IMG/VR virus record: IMGVR_UViG_3300045961_000035
Location: 1 to 54,307 of that record
DNA from: a virus
Lineage: Duplodnaviria > Caudoviricetes
Length of the DNA: 54,307 nucleotides
Direction: 5' to 3' (one strand)
Shown: positions 28,243 through 46,777 of the stretch, piece by piece
Numbering within the stretch: position 1 is the first letter of the stretch
How the letters are laid out: each line of letters starts with the position of its first letter
Notes under the pieces: generated by a model
The model's input: only the letters and a program-made list of their open reading frames with translations
Database searches by the model: none
What the model was told of the DNA's origin: nothing
Translations under genes and position numbers: made by a program

Positions 28243-29331
28243 ATGGAATTTACAGTAAAAGAAGTAGCAGCTGTTGAGTCGAAGTCCGTTCAAGAGATTG
28301 AAAAGGAGCTTCTCGAGAAGCACGAACAGCAGCTGCAAGAGCAGAGCGGGGCGACGGACACGTCACTCCAAGACACCGGAGCACAGGGCGGTGGAGAAAT
28401 CCCTGAGCTAAAAGAGGAAGAGGTTCTTTCATATATTGGAAAAAGGTTCGGCAAGGAGATTAGCTCCTTTGACGATTTAGTCAAGGAGCGCGAACAGTCT
28501 GAGCAACTTCCCGAGGACGTTGCCGCTTACCTGAAGTACAAAAAAGAAACGGGTCGTGGAATCAAAGACTTCTTGAAAGTAAACGAGAGCTTTGATGACA
28601 AAGACCCAGACAAGCTTTTGGTTGAGTACTATGCAGAGACGCAGGAGGACTTGGACCAGGACGACATCAACTTCCTGCTGCGTGAGCAGTTTGGTTACGA
28701 TGAAGACCTGGACGAGGAGTCTGAAGTTAAGCGTAGAAAGCTCGCCAAGAAAAAGGAACTCGCGAAGGCGAAGAAATACTTCGAGGAGCAACGAGAGAAA
28801 TATAAGGCACCGCTTGAGTCAAGTGGCGTGCCTTCTTCTGGAGTTGACCAAGAAGCATTACGCTCTTACCAAGAGTATCTCGCTAGTGCCAAGACCGCCC
28901 AGGACGAAAACCAGAAACGGTATGAGTGGTTTCAAAAGAAGACTGACGAGGTCTTCTCCAACGAATTCAAAGGTTTTGAATTCAACGTTGGTGATAAGTC
29001 TCTCGTCTTTACTCCGGCTGAAGCTGCGGAAATCAAGAAGACACAGTCAGACATCACGAACTTCATTGGTAAGTACGTTGGTAAAGACGGTCTGCTTGAG
29101 GACGCCAAAGGGTATCACAAAGCACTGGCTGTCGCCATGAACTCCGAACGCTTTGCTAAGTTCTTCTACGAACAAGGCATGGCTGACGCCGTGGACGACT
29201 TGTCGAGGAAGTCTAAGAATATCAATATGGATATGCGACAGGCTCCTCAGCAAGTAGGAAAGGGTGGAGTAAAGGTGGCTGCTGTGAACCAGGACTCCGG
29301 TTCTGGTCTCAGAATAAGAAGCAAAAAATAA
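28243..29331 (+). CDS. putative capsid scaffolding protein
   Basis: Acidic and helical, between portal and capsid; preceded by TAACTTTG. Confidence 0.65.
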   Translation: MEFTVKEVAAVESKSVQEIEKELLEKHEQQLQEQSGATDTSLQDTGAQGGGEIPELKEEEVLSYIGKRFGKEISSFDDLVKEREQSEQLPEDVAAYLKYKKETGRGIKDFLKVNESFDDKDPDKLLVEYYAETQEDLDQDDINFLLREQFGYDEDLDEESEVKRRKLAKKKELAKAKKYFEEQREKYKAPLESSGVPSSGVDQEALRSYQEYLASAKTAQDENQKRYEWFQKKTDEVFSNEFKGFEFNVGDKSLVFTPAEAAEIKKTQSDITNFIGKYVGKDGLLEDAKGYHKALAVAMNSERFAKFFYEQGMADAVDDLSRKSKNINMDMRQAPQQVGKGGVKVAAVNQDSGSGLRIRSKK

Positions 29332-29352: not shown

Positions 29353-30768
29353 ATGGCAGGTTCAGTTCAAGCCGTACCCGGCTTCGATTTACAACCCAGT
29401 GCAGAGCGCGTAGCGCTTAGCACTAACTACATCACGAACTTCGACTTCTTGAATCAGTATCTTCCCGATACGTACGAGAAGGAGTTCGAGCGCTACGGAA
29501 ACCGTTCTGTAGCTTCTTTCTTGCGCATGGTAGGTGCCGAGATGCCTTCTAACTCTGACCTCATCAAGTGGGCAGAGCAGGGCCGTCTGCACACCAAGTA
29601 CACGAACGTCACTTCAGCTGCTGCAGCTGGTTCTGACACCGCTACCCTTACTGTTAACGACACGCTCGTTCCAGGTTCAGGTGGCATCGCTGTACGCGTA
29701 GGACAGACCATCATGATTTCTCAGAACACCGCTGGTTCTTCTAACTTCAACAAGGCCATCGTAACTGCAGTTAACTACACTGCCGGTACGCTTGACGTTG
29801 CTTTCTACGAGGCTGGAGGCCAGACCTTCGCTGCTGCCGCCGTATGTAGCATGTTCATCTACGGTTCTGAGTTCAAGAAGGGTACCGAGGGAATGTTGGA
29901 AAGCCTTGAGGCTGACGACGAAATCTTCGAGAACAGCCCCATCATCATCAAGGACAAGTACGCAGTTAGCGGTTCTGACATGGCTCAGATTGGCTGGATT
30001 GAGGTTACTACCGAGAATGGTGCTAGCGGATACCTGTGGTACTTGAAGTCTGAGCACGAGACTCGTCTCCGCTTCGAAGACTACCTTGAGACCGCAATGG
30101 TTGAAGCAGTTCCTGCTGAAGCTAACTCTGGTGCAGTTGCTGCTACCGGCGCCGTTGGTAACAAGGGCTCTGAGGGTATCTTCTACGTTGTAGGACAGCG
30201 TGGTAACGTATGGGCTGGCGGTAACCCCACGACTCTTGGCGAATTCGATGACATCATCGAGCGTCTTGACAAGCAGGGAGCTATCCAGGAGAACGTTATC
30301 TTCTTGAACCGTCAGTTCGGATTCGACATCGACGATATGCTTGCCGCCCAGAACAGCTACGGCGCTGGTGGTACTTCATACGGTCTGTTCGACAACGACA
30401 AGGACATGGCTTTGAACCTCGGCTTCACTGGCTTCCGCCGTGGATACGACTTCTACAAGACCGACTGGAAATACTTGAACGACCCCACCATGCGTGGCGG
30501 AATCGTTGCTGGTAAAATCAACGGTATGTTGGTTCCTGCTGGTTCTACGACTGTATACGACCAAATCCTTGGTAAGAATGCCAAGCGTCCGTTCTTGCAC
30601 GTTCGCTACCGCGCTTCTGAAACAGAGGACCGTCGTTACAAGACTTGGGTTACTGGTTCTGCCGGTGGTGCTGCTACGTCTAGCCTCGACGCTATGGAAG
30701 TTCACTTCTTGTCTGAGCGTGCCGTTTGCACCCTGGGTGCCAACAACTTCTTCATCTTCGAAGACTAA
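29353..30768 (+). CDS. major capsid protein
   Basis: QYLPDTYEKEFERYGNR, WAEQGRLH, GFRRGYDFYKTDWKYLND; strongly biased codons; followed by a strong terminator. Confidence 0.88.
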   Translation: MAGSVQAVPGFDLQPSAERVALSTNYITNFDFLNQYLPDTYEKEFERYGNRSVASFLRMVGAEMPSNSDLIKWAEQGRLHTKYTNVTSAAAAGSDTATLTVNDTLVPGSGGIAVRVGQTIMISQNTAGSSNFNKAIVTAVNYTAGTLDVAFYEAGGQTFAAAAVCSMFIYGSEFKKGTEGMLESLEADDEIFENSPIIIKDKYAVSGSDMAQIGWIEVTTENGASGYLWYLKSEHETRLRFEDYLETAMVEAVPAEANSGAVAATGAVGNKGSEGIFYVVGQRGNVWAGGNPTTLGEFDDIIERLDKQGAIQENVIFLNRQFGFDIDDMLAAQNSYGAGGTSYGLFDNDKDMALNLGFTGFRRGYDFYKTDWKYLNDPTMRGGIVAGKINGMLVPAGSTTVYDQILGKNAKRPFLHVRYRASETEDRRYKTWVTGSAGGAATSSLDAMEVHFLSERAVCTLGANNFFIFED

Positions 30769-39745: not shown

Positions 39746-42700
39746 ATGAACGAAGAGCTTAAGAAGCTATACGATGCAATCGTATCTAAAGGTTTCTATA
39801 CCAAGTCGTATGACGATTTTGTAAATCAGTACCAAGACCCCGCATACCGCGACAAGGTATTTGATGTTGTAACTCGTGAAGGTCTATACACTAGGGGGCG
39901 CGAAGAGTTCGATACAAAGTATGCAGCGACTGGTTTAAAAAAAAAAGAACCTTCAGTTTCTACTTCTCAAGAGGCCGCTATGGAGCAGCCTATGGAGACT
40001 GGTTCTTCGGAGTTGCCAAAGTCCGCAGGCGTTAAGGTAACTACTCCTACGGGACAACAGGCCACTGTTCAGTGGGGGCCTACAGAATTTAAGGCTTCAC
40101 AAGATGCTCCCATGTACGACATGGCGAGTCTGTCTGATATTGTTGGAAATGTTGACGTTACGATTGATGAGGCTACCAAGCAAAAGATAAGCAATGTTGT
40201 AGGCATCACTGGCGCCGTATTTAACAAGATTGTAAACCCGCAGTCCAACGCTGCCCAGGCATTGGCTGATGCAAAAAAGTTTGCCGACAACACTCAGACC
40301 GCATACAATGTTGGAGCCCTGAGTGCGCAGATTAGCAACAACATGGCTGATGAAGTTCCTGACTATGAGCGAGTTGCAAAACTCAAGCAGCAACTGAAAA
40401 ACGAGCAGCCCAAACTTTTGTCATCGCAGCTTGGTGCTGAAGCAGGTGACTTCTTTGATATGCTTGCGGCCAACCCGGTTACATTCCTTACTGAGGTATT
40501 GACTACGTCTGCAACTCAGATGACCGGTGGAGCTGGCGCAATGACACCAGAGGACCTATTGTACGCCACAGCGCTCGGCCTTCCTACCGCTGGAGCTGGA
40601 GCAACCGCCTACATGGCAGGGAAAAACTCACTTAATGCGGAGATGTCTTCTCGCATTCTTGACGCCCTCGAGGAGCGTGGTGTTGATGTAACAAATGCTG
40701 AGCAGCTTCGAACAGCTATGACCAATCCAGAATTAATGATGGATGTCAAAAGCGAAATTCAGGCTCCCGCTACAATTGTTGCTGCACTCGACGCCGTAAG
40801 TGGCGGTCTTGCTGGACGAGTTGGTAAGCCACTAGTTGAACTTGCCATTCAGGCTGGGTCTGGTGCCGTAGGTGAGGCTGGTGCTCAGATTGCCGCAGAT
40901 GGACGTATTACTTCGCCGTCAGCTATCCTTACTGAGATGGTGGCAGAGATTCCAGGTGGCCTTATTGAGACGGCGTTTGGTGCTAAGACGAAAGACATTG
41001 CTCGCAAGACAAAGGTCAATCAGGAAATCAATGAGCTTGAGACTGAGCTTTCTGCGACTGATGACCCAGAGGTTAGAGGGGTACTTGAGACTGCGCTCAA
41101 TGCCAAGAGAAACGAGAAGAATAAGATATTCACTGACTACGCAGACTTTGTGAACTCACTGCCCGAAGAAGAGGTGGCGAGGCTCAATGCGTTAAATGAG
41201 GAGATAGTAAAAGTTAGCAACGCAATCAATACAGTGACCAGCGATATAGCTGGAAAGGCACTGAGAGACCGGAGACAGTCTCTGCTTGATGAGGTTGCAA
41301 AGATTGAAGAAACCGCAACACCAACACAAGATGCCGTTCAAGAGCAAGCAACAGATGAAGGCGTGCTACGCCCAGAACAACCCGAAGTGGGACTGCAAGA
41401 AATGGTCGAAGGAGACCAAGAACCTGAAGTCGTTGCCGAAGCGGGTGAAGAAGTAGTTCCTCAGGCTGTAGAAGAACAAGAGCTGTCTGACCTTAGAGCA
41501 ATTATAGGTGAGCCAGATGGTGGTGAACCAAGATTCAGGCTTTCCGATAGTGAGACTATTGTGAACGAGGCTGATGTCGAGGGGATTACCGATGTGATGA
41601 ACAAGATGCCAGCTGTTCAGCTGGAATTTCAGGAGCCAACTGGCGTTGAGACATCTATCGTATCTCCAATCGAGCAGTCGAAATCGACTGTAAAGGACAT
41701 CACGGAAGAGCAAGCCAGTGCACTTACTGGTAGAATCGAAGATTACAATGGCCTACCTATGGTCACTGGAATGTCTGACATATTGGCATCTGGCGTAGTA
41801 AAGGACTCAATGGGTAATGACATGCAGGTAGACGGTGGTCTTCTGTTCAATGTCCTAGGCTCTAATAAGGACCTCGCTTGGGCTGGCGTAAACGAAGGTG
41901 GAGCTCAGGCTCAGTATGACGCAGCGGTGCGTCTATATCAGTCTAATAAGCCACTGTTCGATAAGGCTTGGACTGACGGAAAGCTGCCTAATGGTCATGT
42001 TCCGATGGCCATTATGCGAATGTCAAATGGTGCAATCAATTCCAACGAGGCTGTGTTCCGCTGGATACTTCCAACGGTAGAATCACTTCCGGAAAAGAAC
42101 AGAGTTAACGCAATGACTCCATTGATTGAGGCTATTGATGCGAAGACAAAAGTTTCCGACGATAAGATTAGAGCGGCAGCCAATGCGCTTAAGAGCGATA
42201 TCGAAGCCAATAACATTAAATCAGTTGATGAGTTACTTAAGTATGTAATTGAGCAGGCTAAGCAGCGTGCTGCTGGCAATGAGGATACATTTACTCTACC
42301 TGAGCGCTCTCTTCTTTATGAGGTTATGTTCTCTGCTGAGGGCGTAAAGAAACCAAATTCAAAATACATCAAGACGTTATTTGATGGCGTCGATGCCACT
42401 AACGCAAAGAACTTCACCTCTGATGCTATCTATGATGCAATTGGCGAGGAGTCAATGAAGAGCTTAAAGCAGGGAAGTGTTGTTGCCATCATGGGTATTG
42501 ACGTACTAAATGGCGGCATTCAGAAAGCGCAGCACAACAACTATGGATTCGGCCCAAAGGGGCAGGCAATTGCTATTTTGCAAAACCCCACGCATGGCAT
42601 TGATGTATTCCCGGAGTGGAAGGCCAAGGCTTCGCGAGTGTTCAAGGAAAAAGTAAAGAAGACCGGAGAGGTTGTGGCTCCGGACATGGAGTCGATACCA

Positions 42701-45700
42701 ACACAAGTTGGTGGTGCCTTCTTTGCTGATGGCGCATTTATTGGCGCAAGACCAATGGTGAATGCCATCGGTGACATAGAGATGCTGATGGGCAAGCTTC
42801 GGTTTGCGTTCCCATCCGTTCAAGCTACGGCTACACAGGAGGAGTTTGATGCCATCATGCAGGACCCAGAGGTAAGAACCAGAGAGGTCAACGGCATGAA
42901 GATTCTTGGCTTGACCAAGGACGGCAATATATACATCAACCCCAGCGAGGCTTCGCTGGCTACGCCAATCCACGAGTTTGGTCACATCTGGATTGACTTC
43001 CTGCGCTCTAAGGAATCAGGCAAGAAGGGCACTGAGCTGCTTAATAAGGGGCTTGAGCTTGTCGAAGGAACGATGGAGCTTGATACGGCCAAGGCGAAGT
43101 ATGGAGACACGGAGCTAGCTAGAGAAGAAGCGCTTGTTGAATTGATGGCCACCAAGGGTGAGACCATCATCAATGCATCTAAGCGTTCCAAGTTTAAGTC
43201 TTGGCTTAATGGCGTGTTCAAGTACATCAAAGAAAGATTCACTACATCTAAGGACCTAAAGGTAGACGGCATCAAAGACCTTACGCTTGACGAGTTCATT
43301 GGCGTAGCTCTAGCTGACCTGTTCTCTGGCCAGCCAATCAACAACAAGTTCAGCCCGAGAAAGGCTGCCGAGTCTATGCGTGCTAGATACAGCGCGCAAG
43401 AGGACAACATCTACGACATAGTTGGAAAGGCAAGGGCTGAAGGTTTCAGGGATGTAACTATCGAAGCGTTTCTAAAGGAGCGTGGATACACGTCTGAAGA
43501 AATCAAGGGAGCCATGGAGATTCCGCTCGATGTGCTCGGCAACGTGCTTCCTGATGCGTTTAAAAACCTTGAGGGCGGGGCGGTAGTTGGTCAGAATTTA
43601 TTTAACAACATCAAAGAAAAGTTAAATAAGCTTGCTGCCAAGAAGAATAAAATCACCAAGAAGCCTGTATACAATAAGTTACAGCTTCGTGAAGAGACAA
43701 AGAATCTTCTGACTGCTACCGAAGAGTTCAAGGCTCAGACGGATGAGGTGAAGGCTAAGCTGATGCTTGACCTCGACAAGGCAATTGGCATCAAGTCAAG
43801 TAACGCAGCAATGCGTGAAGAGTTCAAGTCGCTGAGAGCTATGCTCTTGGACCGCAAGAAGACCAGAGATAATCTCGAGGCCATCAAACGTAAGGTGCGT
43901 GGCTTCATTCGCAAGTCATTGCCGCAGGGTGAGTACACCAAGGCTGATGTACTTAAGTTAATCCAGGCCGTTACCGACGCCAACTACGACAACCTGCCCG
44001 CAATAATGCAGCGCGTTGAGGGATACGTTAACGAGTACAACGTAGCCAAGGTAGAGCGAGACATCAAGAAACTTCTTGAGACCAAGACCACTAAGGTTGA
44101 GAGCGGTAGAAGAATGGGCACTACGACTATCCAGGTTCAGGATGCCATTGCTTCTATTAATGAGGAGCTTGTGAGTCCAGACATGGCGCCAGATAAGATA
44201 GCCGAAACCATGGAGCGCCAGCTTAAGGAGTTCGATGAATTGACTTCTGAATTCTCTCTCGACGAAGAGGATATAATGCGTGCTCAGGTTCTACAGATAG
44301 CCATGCTGTACAACGAGGCATCGCTGATGGAGAACAACGACCCGAACAAACTGGATACGTTGACGCAGGCTAAGACGCAGCTGGCTCAGCTCGTACTTGA
44401 GGGACGCTCAGCGTTTAAGGATGCGCTGTCTCGTCAGCATGAGATGTACAGACAGAACGTGAAGGACCTCATCGAATCTATCACGGGCAAGGTAGTTGAT
44501 GACGACATCACTACCAACGATGGGGCTGAGGAGTTTGTTAGAACGTCAGAGATTGAGCGAGCAAACGAGGAGGCCACTAAGTCAAGAGTCGCAAAGGCGT
44601 GGTCTTCATTTGTTGGCCAGCCGTTCACTAACTACTTTGATAAGACTGGTTCACTTCACACGCTGTTGTCGCGCATAACGGAGAACCTTACTGACCAGTT
44701 TGGCGGAAGAGTTCACGATATGGTATACGACAGACTCAAGCAATCAAGCATTGAGTTCGAGGGCAGGATGCAGAAGATGAACGCCATGATTGACAAGGCA
44801 GCCATCGACATCTTTGGAGAGAAGTACGACAGCGTTGTAAAGAACAACAAGGTAAAAGCTCCAGTCGACATCTTTAAGGATGAGGCAGCTGCCAAGAAGA
44901 TTATGGATGAGATGAAGACGGCAAGCTCAAAGCGTAAGACTGAGCTGAATGCTGAGCTTAACAAACTCCGTGTGTTCGAGCCGATGAGTCAAAACCAAAT
45001 CTACTACCTGTACAACCAATACAAAGACCCGGCTAACAGAACTGGCTTCGAGTCTAAGTTTGGAGACAACTACGTAGAGCTTATGGACAGGCTATTCAAC
45101 GAGGCTCTTGACCCAAGGGTAAAAGAATGGGCTGACTGGCAGGTAAACGTTTTGTACCCATCACTTTACCAGGACTACAACCCAGTATATCAGAATATAT
45201 TCCGCACCAATATGCCGTGGAATCCGAACTACGCTGGACGGATGTATCGTGAGTTTGAGGCTGACGATACCATGGCAATCACGCTGATGAATGATAAGGG
45301 CGAGTTCTCAAACATCCAGACGCCATCGTCTACGAAGCTTCGCAAGAAGAATAAGAATGCCATCAAGCTGATGGATGGTGATGGTGTGCTATCATCATAC
45401 CTTGGCGACATGGAATACTTCCGTGCATACGCGGAGAGTATCCGTGACATTGATAAGATGTTCAAGAACAAGGCTGTTCGCGAGTCAATCAAGAGGACTA
45501 CCGGGGAAGATGTGCTCAAGCTTATCGACAACAACATTAAGCTTGTTGGAACGAGAGGGATGAGTGCCGGAGAGGGCATGAAGCAAACTATGCTTGATAA
45601 TATATCAGCCAGATTCTCTAAGGCTGTGCTCATGGCTAACCCATCTCAGTTTGTCAAGCAGGCAACGTCTTTGTTTGCGTTCGCTAACCGCATTGGCTTT

Positions 45701-46777
45701 GAGAACTGGGCTAAGTACACAGCCAAGGCAACGCCAGACATGAAGAATCTTTGGAATGAGTTCATCGAGAATGCGCCACGCATTCAGAAGCGCTACAACC
45801 CGAAGGAGCTGACGGCCATCATTGGAACGTACAAGCAGGGACGAACTACGGACATAATGCCAAAGGATAAAGAAGGTAATCCAATCCTTAGAACGGCTGG
45901 AGAAGTATACGACAAGATGCTTGATGCCATGATGTGGCCTGTAATTCAGGGTGATAAGTTCTCGGCTATGGCTGGAGCAATGGGCAACTACCTGTACTAC
46001 AAGGAGTCGTTCTTTGCTTCCAATCCCAAGGCCACGGAACAAGAGGCCATCAAGTATGCGGCCGATAAGGTCAGCACCGAGATTGAGCAGACGCTTGGCT
46101 CATCCGATATTATCGACAAGGACTACTATCAAAACTCTGGCAACGCATTGTACCGTGCGTTCTCTGTACTTCAGAATGCGCCAAAGGCTATGATTCGTCA
46201 GATTGTTCCAGCGTACAGCGGCTTCTTTAAGAAGCTGGCAAAGATGGATAAAACGGCAGGACAGGGAACGCTCAAGCAAAACATTGAGACCATCTTCCTA
46301 TACCAATTCTTGGTACCCATGCTGTTCCAGTACGCGGTACTCGGATTTCCAGGTCTGCTTAGAGAGTGGAGAGAAGATGAGGACGATTACGAAATGGGTA
46401 TGGCCGCTCTGCTCGGACCGTTCACTGCGCTGTTCTTTGTTGGAGATATGCTTACCGCCGCACGCGACCTATTGCTTGACAAGCCGTGGGCTACAGATGC
46501 ACGCACTGCTCCGGGATGGGATATTCTATCTGATGCAACTAAGTCTGCTCAGAAGATAATGAATGCCAAGAGTGATGACGATGTATACGAGGCTATTGCA
46601 GACATGGGTTACGCAGCGTCAGCTGCCGCAGGACTTGGCCTCAAGAACATAAGCAGAATGGCTCAGAACATGGCTGAGGTAATCGACAGCGGTGCTAACG
46701 ATGCAGGAGAAGCGGTTCTAAGGTTGCTAAACTATTCAGACTACACCATTGAGGGACCAGACAGGAAAAAGAAGTAG
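39746..46777 (+). CDS. giant virion (ejection/polyvalent-type) protein with zincin-like HExxH motif
   Basis: 2343 aa; IYINP..LATPIHEFGHIW..EEALVE; hydrophobic Gly/Ala segments near both ends. Confidence 0.8.
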   Translation: MNEELKKLYDAIVSKGFYTKSYDDFVNQYQDPAYRDKVFDVVTREGLYTRGREEFDTKYAATGLKKKEPSVSTSQEAAMEQPMETGSSELPKSAGVKVTTPTGQQATVQWGPTEFKASQDAPMYDMASLSDIVGNVDVTIDEATKQKISNVVGITGAVFNKIVNPQSNAAQALADAKKFADNTQTAYNVGALSAQISNNMADEVPDYERVAKLKQQLKNEQPKLLSSQLGAEAGDFFDMLAANPVTFLTEVLTTSATQMTGGAGAMTPEDLLYATALGLPTAGAGATAYMAGKNSLNAEMSSRILDALEERGVDVTNAEQLRTAMTNPELMMDVKSEIQAPATIVAALDAVSGGLAGRVGKPLVELAIQAGSGAVGEAGAQIAADGRITSPSAILTEMVAEIPGGLIETAFGAKTKDIARKTKVNQEINELETELSATDDPEVRGVLETALNAKRNEKNKIFTDYADFVNSLPEEEVARLNALNEEIVKVSNAINTVTSDIAGKALRDRRQSLLDEVAKIEETATPTQDAVQEQATDEGVLRPEQPEVGLQEMVEGDQEPEVVAEAGEEVVPQAVEEQELSDLRAIIGEPDGGEPRFRLSDSETIVNEADVEGITDVMNKMPAVQLEFQEPTGVETSIVSPIEQSKSTVKDITEEQASALTGRIEDYNGLPMVTGMSDILASGVVKDSMGNDMQVDGGLLFNVLGSNKDLAWAGVNEGGAQAQYDAAVRLYQSNKPLFDKAWTDGKLPNGHVPMAIMRMSNGAINSNEAVFRWILPTVESLPEKNRVNAMTPLIEAIDAKTKVSDDKIRAAANALKSDIEANNIKSVDELLKYVIEQAKQRAAGNEDTFTLPERSLLYEVMFSAEGVKKPNSKYIKTLFDGVDATNAKNFTSDAIYDAIGEESMKSLKQGSVVAIMGIDVLNGGIQKAQHNNYGFGPKGQAIAILQNPTHGIDVFPEWKAKASRVFKEKVKKTGEVVAPDMESIPTQVGGAFFADGAFIGARPMVNAIGDIEMLMGKLRFAFPSVQATATQEEFDAIMQDPEVRTREVNGMKILGLTKDGNIYINPSEASLATPIHEFGHIWIDFLRSKESGKKGTELLNKGLELVEGTMELDTAKAKYGDTELAREEALVELMATKGETIINASKRSKFKSWLNGVFKYIKERFTTSKDLKVDGIKDLTLDEFIGVALADLFSGQPINNKFSPRKAAESMRARYSAQEDNIYDIVGKARAEGFRDVTIEAFLKERGYTSEEIKGAMEIPLDVLGNVLPDAFKNLEGGAVVGQNLFNNIKEKLNKLAAKKNKITKKPVYNKLQLREETKNLLTATEEFKAQTDEVKAKLMLDLDKAIGIKSSNAAMREEFKSLRAMLLDRKKTRDNLEAIKRKVRGFIRKSLPQGEYTKADVLKLIQAVTDANYDNLPAIMQRVEGYVNEYNVAKVERDIKKLLETKTTKVESGRRMGTTTIQVQDAIASINEELVSPDMAPDKIAETMERQLKEFDELTSEFSLDEEDIMRAQVLQIAMLYNEASLMENNDPNKLDTLTQAKTQLAQLVLEGRSAFKDALSRQHEMYRQNVKDLIESITGKVVDDDITTNDGAEEFVRTSEIERANEEATKSRVAKAWSSFVGQPFTNYFDKTGSLHTLLSRITENLTDQFGGRVHDMVYDRLKQSSIEFEGRMQKMNAMIDKAAIDIFGEKYDSVVKNNKVKAPVDIFKDEAAAKKIMDEMKTASSKRKTELNAELNKLRVFEPMSQNQIYYLYNQYKDPANRTGFESKFGDNYVELMDRLFNEALDPRVKEWADWQVNVLYPSLYQDYNPVYQNIFRTNMPWNPNYAGRMYREFEADDTMAITLMNDKGEFSNIQTPSSTKLRKKNKNAIKLMDGDGVLSSYLGDMEYFRAYAESIRDIDKMFKNKAVRESIKRTTGEDVLKLIDNNIKLVGTRGMSAGEGMKQTMLDNISARFSKAVLMANPSQFVKQATSLFAFANRIGFENWAKYTAKATPDMKNLWNEFIENAPRIQKRYNPKELTAIIGTYKQGRTTDIMPKDKEGNPILRTAGEVYDKMLDAMMWPVIQGDKFSAMAGAMGNYLYYKESFFASNPKATEQEAIKYAADKVSTEIEQTLGSSDIIDKDYYQNSGNALYRAFSVLQNAPKAMIRQIVPAYSGFFKKLAKMDKTAGQGTLKQNIETIFLYQFLVPMLFQYAVLGFPGLLREWREDEDDYEMGMAALLGPFTALFFVGDMLTAARDLLLDKPWATDARTAPGWDILSDATKSAQKIMNAKSDDDVYEAIADMGYAASAAAGLGLKNISRMAQNMAEVIDSGANDAGEAVLRLLNYSDYTIEGPDRKKK
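41331..41456 (+). CDS. nested +1-frame small basic protein (41 aa)
   Basis: MPFKSKQQMKACYAQNNPKWDCKKWSKETKNLKSLPKRVKK lies inside an acidic linker of the giant gene. Confidence 0.6.
   Translation: MPFKSKQQMKACYAQNNPKWDCKKWSKETKNLKSLPKRVKK

Follow-up and report, generated by a model that had tools for sequence, protein, structure and literature searches.

The closest described parallel in a double-stranded DNA (dsDNA) phage is Rz1 of phage lambda, a spanin lipoprotein gene that lies within Rz and acts with Rz in lysis, while a functional parallel is offered by the internal proteins of phage T4, which bear N-terminal capsid-targeting sequences. Overprinting of the phiX174 type, known from small phages and from RNA viruses, lets one DNA stretch specify two proteins in different frames and freezes synonymous sites (excerpts of PMC8227390 and PMC3494269). 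Here we describe a 41-codon open reading frame (ORF) at positions 41331-41456 of a Caudoviricetes record of 54,307 nucleotides (IMG/VR record IMGVR_UViG_3300045961_000035, analysed at its full length and hereafter called the window), which lies in the +1 frame of a giant virion-protein gene. Comparison with related phages indicates, with a probability that we put at roughly 0.86, that this ORF is a real protein-coding gene nested in the larger one, so that 126 bases are read twice.

In the arrangement that we propose, ribosomes on the giant ORF would read the 126 bases as an acidic linker, and ribosomes starting independently at AUG 41331 would produce a 41-residue, lysine-rich, two-helix protein of a family recognized by its MPFKSKxQ N-terminus. 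The independent start would be preceded by a leader that is A-rich, unstructured, and free of a Shine-Dalgarno site, as in Bacteroidota. The small gene would be the older partner, across which the large ORF came to read, and the resulting two-frame cassette would have been transferred between two different host genes.

Results

A 41-codon ORF within a giant virion-protein gene

The ORF begins at ATG 41331, ends at TAG 41454-41456 and encodes the 41-residue product MPFKSKQQMKACYAQNNPKWDCKKWSKETKNLKSLPKRVKK. Its offset from the start of ORF 39746-46777 is 1585 nucleotides (3x528+1), which places it in the +1 frame, and the host residues that it overlaps (529-571; DAVQEQATDEGVLRPEQPEVGLQEMVEGDQEPEVVAEAGEEVV) have an isoelectric point (pI) of 4.05. 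Lysine is encoded by 11 AAG and one AAA codon in the nested ORF and by 154 AAG and 34 AAA codons in the host gene. The initial annotation, made from the letters of the window alone, had described a clean ATG-to-TAG ORF of 41 codons in the +1 frame, with the AAG preference of its genome and an acidic linker in the host frame, and all of these features are present as described. The length of the ORF is unremarkable by itself: the host gene has 47 ORFs starting with ATG in its +1 frame, four of them longer (84, 62, 60, and 59 codons), and it is conservation, not length, that sets this ORF above chance. An alternative in-frame ATG at 41289 would give a 55-codon version, and the alignment to the family profile begins at the methionine of 41331.

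Table 1 Coordinates of the nested gene, its surroundings and the related gene downstream of the portal gene.
Feature	Position	Strand	Description
Nested gene	41331..41456	+	41 codons + TAG; 4.96 kDa, pI 10.2, 12 K, 1 R
Putative initiation region of nested gene	41307..41330	+	A-rich, G-poor, no Shine-Dalgarno site, unstructured
Host gene	39746..46777	+	Giant 2343-aa virion-type protein; last gene of structural block; frame open across nested gene
Host-frame acidic linker	41330..41458	+	Codons 529-571; third-position identity 0.85-0.95, host pN/pS 1.01
Post-portal gene	28243..29331	+	362 aa, phrog_16786; cassette-free in window; orthologue in related phages has two-frame cassette near 5' end

Conservation across relatives

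A 1201-nucleotide query (40800-42000) searched with blastn against 50,697 phage records matched 69 of them, all solely at query positions 529-653 (window 41328-41452) and with 80-82% identity. The nested peptide, searched with tblastn, matched 70 records, 69 of them over at least 80% of its length and with 80-83% identity; 68 of these are Flavobacterium 'elemo' phage records and one is an uncultured podovirus. GenBank annotation under the match consists only of a large structural-protein coding sequence, the nested gene being absent (two feature tables; 30 rows among the matches listed). In a three-way DNA alignment the conserved island starts at the ATG and fades near the stop, and its flanks are unalignable.

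Two scans of IMG/VR yielded at least 262 and at least 415 confirmed relatives, each among 600 pattern matches, and 80 loci were retained from each. The window, two further sequences (L001 and L002), and the 80 loci of the first scan make up a close subfamily of 83 sources. The conservation of start and stop in homologues, which the initial annotation had set as a test, is complete in this set: both are retained in 83/83 sources, in ORFs of 41-52 codons, and in every source the ORF lies within a longer ORF on the same strand, always in its +1 frame. The window, which spans the whole of its IMG/VR virus record (estimated completeness 89%), contains exactly one copy of the family; in a six-frame profile scan of its 1941 pieces the nested ORF is the only significant match (E-value 2.4e-24; next best 0.4). 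Five related records with the cassette that were checked likewise hold one family copy apiece.

Contigs from four metagenome runs, mapped over 40800-42000, give a summed depth that peaks at 41333-41373 (144.7, 57.9, 33, and 15.1, vs. single-digit flanks), exceeding the flanking depth 5-20 times. Many unrelated contigs match only the first ~30 bases of the nested gene, from ~41320-41331 to ~41354-41360, and then diverge; upstream they are mostly A-rich. Among eight listed contig differences inside the nested ORF (19 further rows lie outside this count), five are silent in the nested frame, including TAG>TAA, and all five are non-synonymous in the host frame, while the other three result in Y13F and Q15A, residues that are found elsewhere in the family. 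One contig of metagenome run X2 carries a 12-base insertion at 41447 that leaves both frames in register, with the peptide tail and the host linker each four codons longer.

Selection on the two frames

Across 71 unique sequences, the first two positions of nested codons 1-29 mostly have an entropy of zero or close to it (codons 7, 14, 15, and 26 are variable), and entropy at position 3 is clearly higher for most codons, with a maximum of about 1.7. Upstream of the nested ATG entropy is about 1.5 at all positions, and conservation sets in exactly at the ATG. Over codons 2-29 of 72 unique sequences (2556 pairs; Nei-Gojobori proportions), the nested frame has a ratio of non-synonymous to synonymous differences (pN/pS) of 0.19 and the host frame one of 1.01, with pS depressed to 0.17 in the latter. 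Third positions of the host frame, aligned by codon between the window and two relatives (L022 and L005), have a mean identity of 0.30 over 345 and 365 sliding windows; identity of at least 0.8 is confined to seven sliding windows over the nested ORF. In the shorter of the two host-gene types described below, the third host position is the most variable one ahead of the overlap, which marks the host frame as coding there, and the order flips inside the overlap.

Codon choice in the nested gene also bears on the host frame. T-ending codons that would create a host-frame TAA, TAG, or TGA occur at 0/944 sites in nested copies vs. 205/1112 at harmless sites, a zero that is partly definitional because an open host frame was part of what defined a nested copy, unlike the shifted codon choice and the thousands of open flanking codons. 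Free-standing copies use T-ending codons alike at both kinds of site (88/294 vs. 129/418) and have a mean of 3.26 stops in that frame. The codon for Phe3 is TTC in 84/84 nested copies, and TTT (15) or TTC (12) in free-standing ones.

Together these comparisons show that purifying selection acts on the nested frame and freezes the synonymous sites of the host linker, and that the host frame is also kept open. With a short ORF wholly inside a longer one on the same strand and selection in both frames, the locus has the sequence properties of a nested (fully overlapped) gene pair. By the same comparative measures, the sequence of the acidic linker is dictated by the nested gene; the initial annotation had expected a real nested gene that constrains the linker, visible as conservation of host synonymous sites, and both expectations held.

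A widespread family of small basic proteins

A word-indexed search recovered 56 called small proteins of the family, 40-76 aa in length, with the pattern MPFKSKxQ-(helix)-W.KET(P)-..K.LP-K-rich tail. The N-terminus of the window peptide, MPFKSKQQ, fits the form M-P-F-K-S/N-K-x-Q, in which M1, P2, F3, and K4 are invariant among 57 aligned sequences. Its central motif, W25-S-K-E-T29, is followed by L35-P36 and the tail KRVKK; L35 is invariant and T29 and P36 are at least 90% conserved in the same alignment. A profile built only from wider members matches the window ORF with an E-value of 9.4e-20, and the fuller profile gives the value reported above for the six-frame scan. Searched against 1.84 billion representatives, the 57-sequence profile found 3331 matches at E<=1e-3, 456 of them at <=1e-10. 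Among the 150 best of these 3331 matches, the module is mostly at residue 1, and many of the matched proteins, 100-980 aa long, have it as their N-terminus.

Of 160 classified ORFs from all sources, 104 are nested with the same frame relation, 37 stand free, and 19 are partly overlapped, and 9/23 wider family members match phrog_1375 (function unknown). The likeness to stand-alone small basic phage proteins that the initial annotation had pointed out is borne out by the free-standing relatives, whose absence it had named as a refuting observation. The window peptide has no Pfam match at E<=1, and PHROGs v4 returned only phrog_5320 at E 0.22, without a direct match to phrog_1375. Atlas neighbour clusters and a cluster look-up gave only 'hypothetical protein' names, and no description of the nested gene was found in literature (supplements aside) on the motif, phrog_1375, elemo phages, and nested or overprinted phage genes.

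In GC-rich loci (L083, L085, L092, L097, L139, L140, L143, L144, and similar; 56-64% GC), ORFs of 150-190 codons run across family copies with the same frame relation and are probably open by chance. Many of the small overlapping ORFs counted above come from GC-rich loci and are likewise probably due to chance, and overlapping ORFs of 100-200 codons in 27 such loci (GC 0.56-0.64) were set aside as probable chance frames.

The predicted fold of the nested product (AlphaFold2, 57-row alignment; mean predicted local distance difference test, pLDDT, 84.1) consists of a helix at residues 6-14, a loop, a helix at residues 22-28, and an extended basic tail. The subfamily of the window peptide has cysteines at positions 12 and 22, where other members have M/F and A, which fits a contact between the two helices. 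A PDB sequence search returned only a spurious leucine-rich repeat match (E 0.36).

The same cassette in two host genes

The large ORF around the nested gene is of two types. In the first, as in the window, it is a giant protein whose relatives bear the annotation 'structural protein' in Flavobacterium elemo phages; the window protein is 43-49% identical to the giant ORFs of L005 and L022 over 857-1122 aa. In the second, found in about 50 AT-rich loci, the host ORF is 380-408 aa long and the peptide starts 35-57 codons past the host ATG. This shorter host ORF follows an ORF of ~800 aa that is 50% identical to the window portal protein (phrog_6547, E 9e-146), and precedes an ORF of ~480 aa that is 51% identical to window 29353-30768. 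Residues ~110-390 of the shorter hosts have 32-38% identity to the window post-portal gene (Table 1), and their N-terminus (MSEQVKQEGDFK...) is conserved; residues ~20-100 are the only part matching the window giant gene, at 41270-41530. Five shorter-host records, one of them 100% complete, match the window giant protein at the cassette only.

By these alignments, the two-frame cassette of related phages is the same although the genes that harbour it are non-homologous, from which we infer that a ready-made cassette moved between two host genes. The small gene is probably older, and the acidic linker of the large ORF a younger reading laid across it. The initial annotation called the gene overprinted: the nested overlap is real, but the direction that the word implies is probably reversed, because the small gene is distributed far wider than the overlap.

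Searches with the host proteins added little. Five host proteins of ~380-405 aa gave, in PHROGs and Pfam, only a weak match to phrog_33243 (unknown function, E 0.0095) for one of them, L041, and three fused relatives gave only phrog_1375 plus one sub-threshold Pfam match. When parts of the giant and ~390-aa hosts were searched with tblastn against the stand-alone loci, no neighbour proved to be shared at E<=1e-5, and nothing but truncated nested-type contigs was matched.

The giant hosts are collinear and very elastic: the domain that follows the cassette lies ~25 residues downstream in the window and ~1100 in L002 (MW202828), and the cassette is placed 400-1220 codons into different giant ORFs. 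A HEFGH (HExxH) motif, as in zinc metallopeptidases, occurs at residues 1076-1080 of the giant protein (42971-42985), where Pfam and PHROGs have no domain. In the 5' part of the post-portal gene, near 28285-28300, an 11-base string (CCGTTCAAGAG) is shared with the cassette start at 41334-41344, and its +1 frame reads SPFKRLK...; the string sits where related phages carry the cassette. A cassette relic in the window post-portal gene, possible from this string, is not detected by the family profile.

Proposed translation initiation

The 30 nucleotides ahead of the nested ATG are 50% A, and a 60-nucleotide leader folds with a minimum free energy of -2.2 kcal/mol (z +1.05). Across 72 unique relatives, A is enriched over a background of 0.42 at -13 (0.97), -12 (0.88), -11 (0.88), -8 (0.89), -6 (0.88), and -3 (0.72). 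In Flavobacterium johnsoniae, A-3, A-6, A-12, and A-13 are experimentally positive determinants of initiation (PMC6847099, in excerpt). Flavobacterium is also the host of the cultured relatives of the window phage, and a 4-mer resembling a Shine-Dalgarno site precedes only 4/38 genes of the window.

TTTG-containing motifs (e.g. CTTTGTAACAA) lie 10-20 nucleotides before several starts, upstream of 28243, 31662, and 37336. We take these motifs to resemble Bacteroidota promoter and initiation signals, and together with the near absence of Shine-Dalgarno sites they fit a Bacteroidota host.

In many loci a stop in the nested frame lies 0-2 codons ahead of the ATG, which excludes entry by upstream frameshifting. 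The A-rich, unstructured leader fits initiation of the Bacteroidota type without a Shine-Dalgarno site, and internal initiation probably occurs at AUG 41331.

Alternative explanations

Four other explanations were weighed against a nested gene. The best placed of them, which we nevertheless regard as improbable, is that AUG 41331 serves mainly as the internal start of a longer product, made by a -1 slip in the lysine tail into the host frame and resembling the in-frame fused relatives. The module does form the N-terminus of many larger proteins, the host frame is -1 relative to the peptide, and lysine tails can hold A-runs. Yet an X_XXY_YYZ heptamer is found in the tail in only 8/84 unique nested copies vs. 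6/27 stand-alone copies, none is present in the window, L001, L002, L005, or L022, so that the locus lacks the mark of a frameshift cassette, and the stop codon is conserved, its only listed change being TAG>TAA in one contig.

An engulfed relic, that is, a formerly free small gene swallowed by the large ORF and now untranslated and decaying, is very improbable. Its stand-alone relatives and the seemingly secondary overlap are what such a history would leave behind. A decaying gene is contradicted by the entropy profile and the low nested pN/pS, by an invariant ATG, stop, and A-rich leader that are kept although the host proteins are only 43-49% identical, and by its being the sole family copy in each of the six records checked.

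The conserved island could instead be an RNA or DNA element (a structure, or a regulatory or recombination site) rather than a second coding frame, given that a sharp nucleotide-level island within a diverged gene would look alike. We give this explanation very little credence: variation is strictly 3-base periodic in the nested frame, stand-alone protein homologues exist, there is no Rfam match at E<=1, and folding energy is ordinary both over 146 nucleotides (z 0.11) and in the leader.

A +1 frame left open for 41 codons by accident, in a low-complexity stretch rich in lysine codons, has next to no chance of being right, since the four longer ATG ORFs in the same frame and the chance open frames over the family in GC-rich relatives are outweighed by a start, stop, and amino acid sequence kept in all 83 close sources despite unalignable flanks, by the selection, entropy, and host third-position data, and by the profile match.

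Discussion

The coding of two proteins by one 126-base stretch is the reading best supported by the comparisons above. Several points weigh against parts of it. The compared sequences share kinship, so that their counts are not independent events, and the absence of host-frame stops is partly definitional, as noted. The window leader itself has A at just two of the four F. johnsoniae positions (-3 and -13, not -6 and -12). Membership in the family rests on profiles built here, because the window peptide has no Pfam match and no significant PHROGs match. The functional proposal made below draws on the neighbourhood in a few loci and on the 2/10 fused relatives with a recognized domain, and Foldseek against the PDB gave no structural match (0 matches) for the nested product.

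Clues to function come from free-standing and fused relatives. In L134 the gene order is a portal-type gene (phrog_449), a 101-aa ORF, the small gene, a head-assembly or scaffold gene (phrog_1052), and the major head protein; in L128 and L154 the major head protein is encoded two genes downstream of the free-standing small gene. Ten fused relatives were scanned with Pfam: P0065 combines the module with a YkuD L,D-transpeptidase domain and P0202 with Phage_lysozyme2, and the remaining 8/10 have no recognized Pfam domain. One fused form is found repeatedly, in six IMG/VR loci: it is 192 aa long in L091, L102, L119, L130, and L132, and 198 aa long in L110. Because free-standing copies occur in head modules and some fused relatives carry lytic cargo domains, we favour, with low confidence and well short of even odds, a head-internal basic protein or a procapsid-targeting module made along with the virion proteins.

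A broader proposal, tentative and somewhat short of even odds, is that the unit of 130-170 nucleotides is a portable two-frame cassette: an ancient head-module gene, readable in the -1 frame as a harmless acidic linker, would have been relocated between large structural genes, its product being a procapsid-targeting or DNA-binding internal protein. If true, a small essential gene could in this way survive and spread while concealed in ORFs, a strategy that would be new.

Annotation routinely overlooks nested genes, and at this locus the comparative case for two-frame coding in a large dsDNA phage is unusually clean. The locus would reverse the usual order of events, with an old small gene overlaid by a younger reading of a large ORF, and among related phages the same cassette turns up in two host genes that are unrelated to each other. 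Annotators gain a family to look for in Bacteroidota phages, to judge from the relatives confirmed in the two IMG/VR scans, and the locus would lend itself naturally to tests of Shine-Dalgarno-independent initiation within an ORF that is itself translated.

Comparison with described families and systems places the gene as follows. With phrog_1375 and the wider MPFKSKxQ family the window peptide shares the MPFKSKxQ start, W.KET(P), LP, and the K-rich tail; it differs in being nested rather than free-standing and in belonging to a two-cysteine subfamily, and its link to phrog_1375 is indirect. Pfam DUF3008 (PF11450) likewise comprises small basic proteins and is found on 18% of the members of one atlas neighbour cluster, but it matches neither the window peptide (E<=1) nor the 23 wider members (E<=0.1), and is a lead only. 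The capsid-targeting sequences of T4 are a functional analogy only: there, as here, proteins that are otherwise unlike and are encoded among head genes have a short N-terminal module in common, with lytic cargo domains in some of the fused relatives here, and no sequence relation is claimed.

Rz1 and Rz share with the present pair the complete enclosure of a short dsDNA-phage gene, in the +1 frame and with a start of its own, by a longer one; both products are made in Rz1/Rz, and the pair described here is known from sequence comparison. Here, in contrast, the product is predicted to be a very basic, soluble peptide that lacks a signal and a lipobox, and the gene has many stand-alone homologues and two non-homologous host genes. 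As in overprinting of the phiX174 type, two-frame coding freezes synonymous sites. In the classic case, however, the nested frame is the de novo newcomer, whereas here the nested gene is widespread and probably older, and the linker is likely the newcomer.

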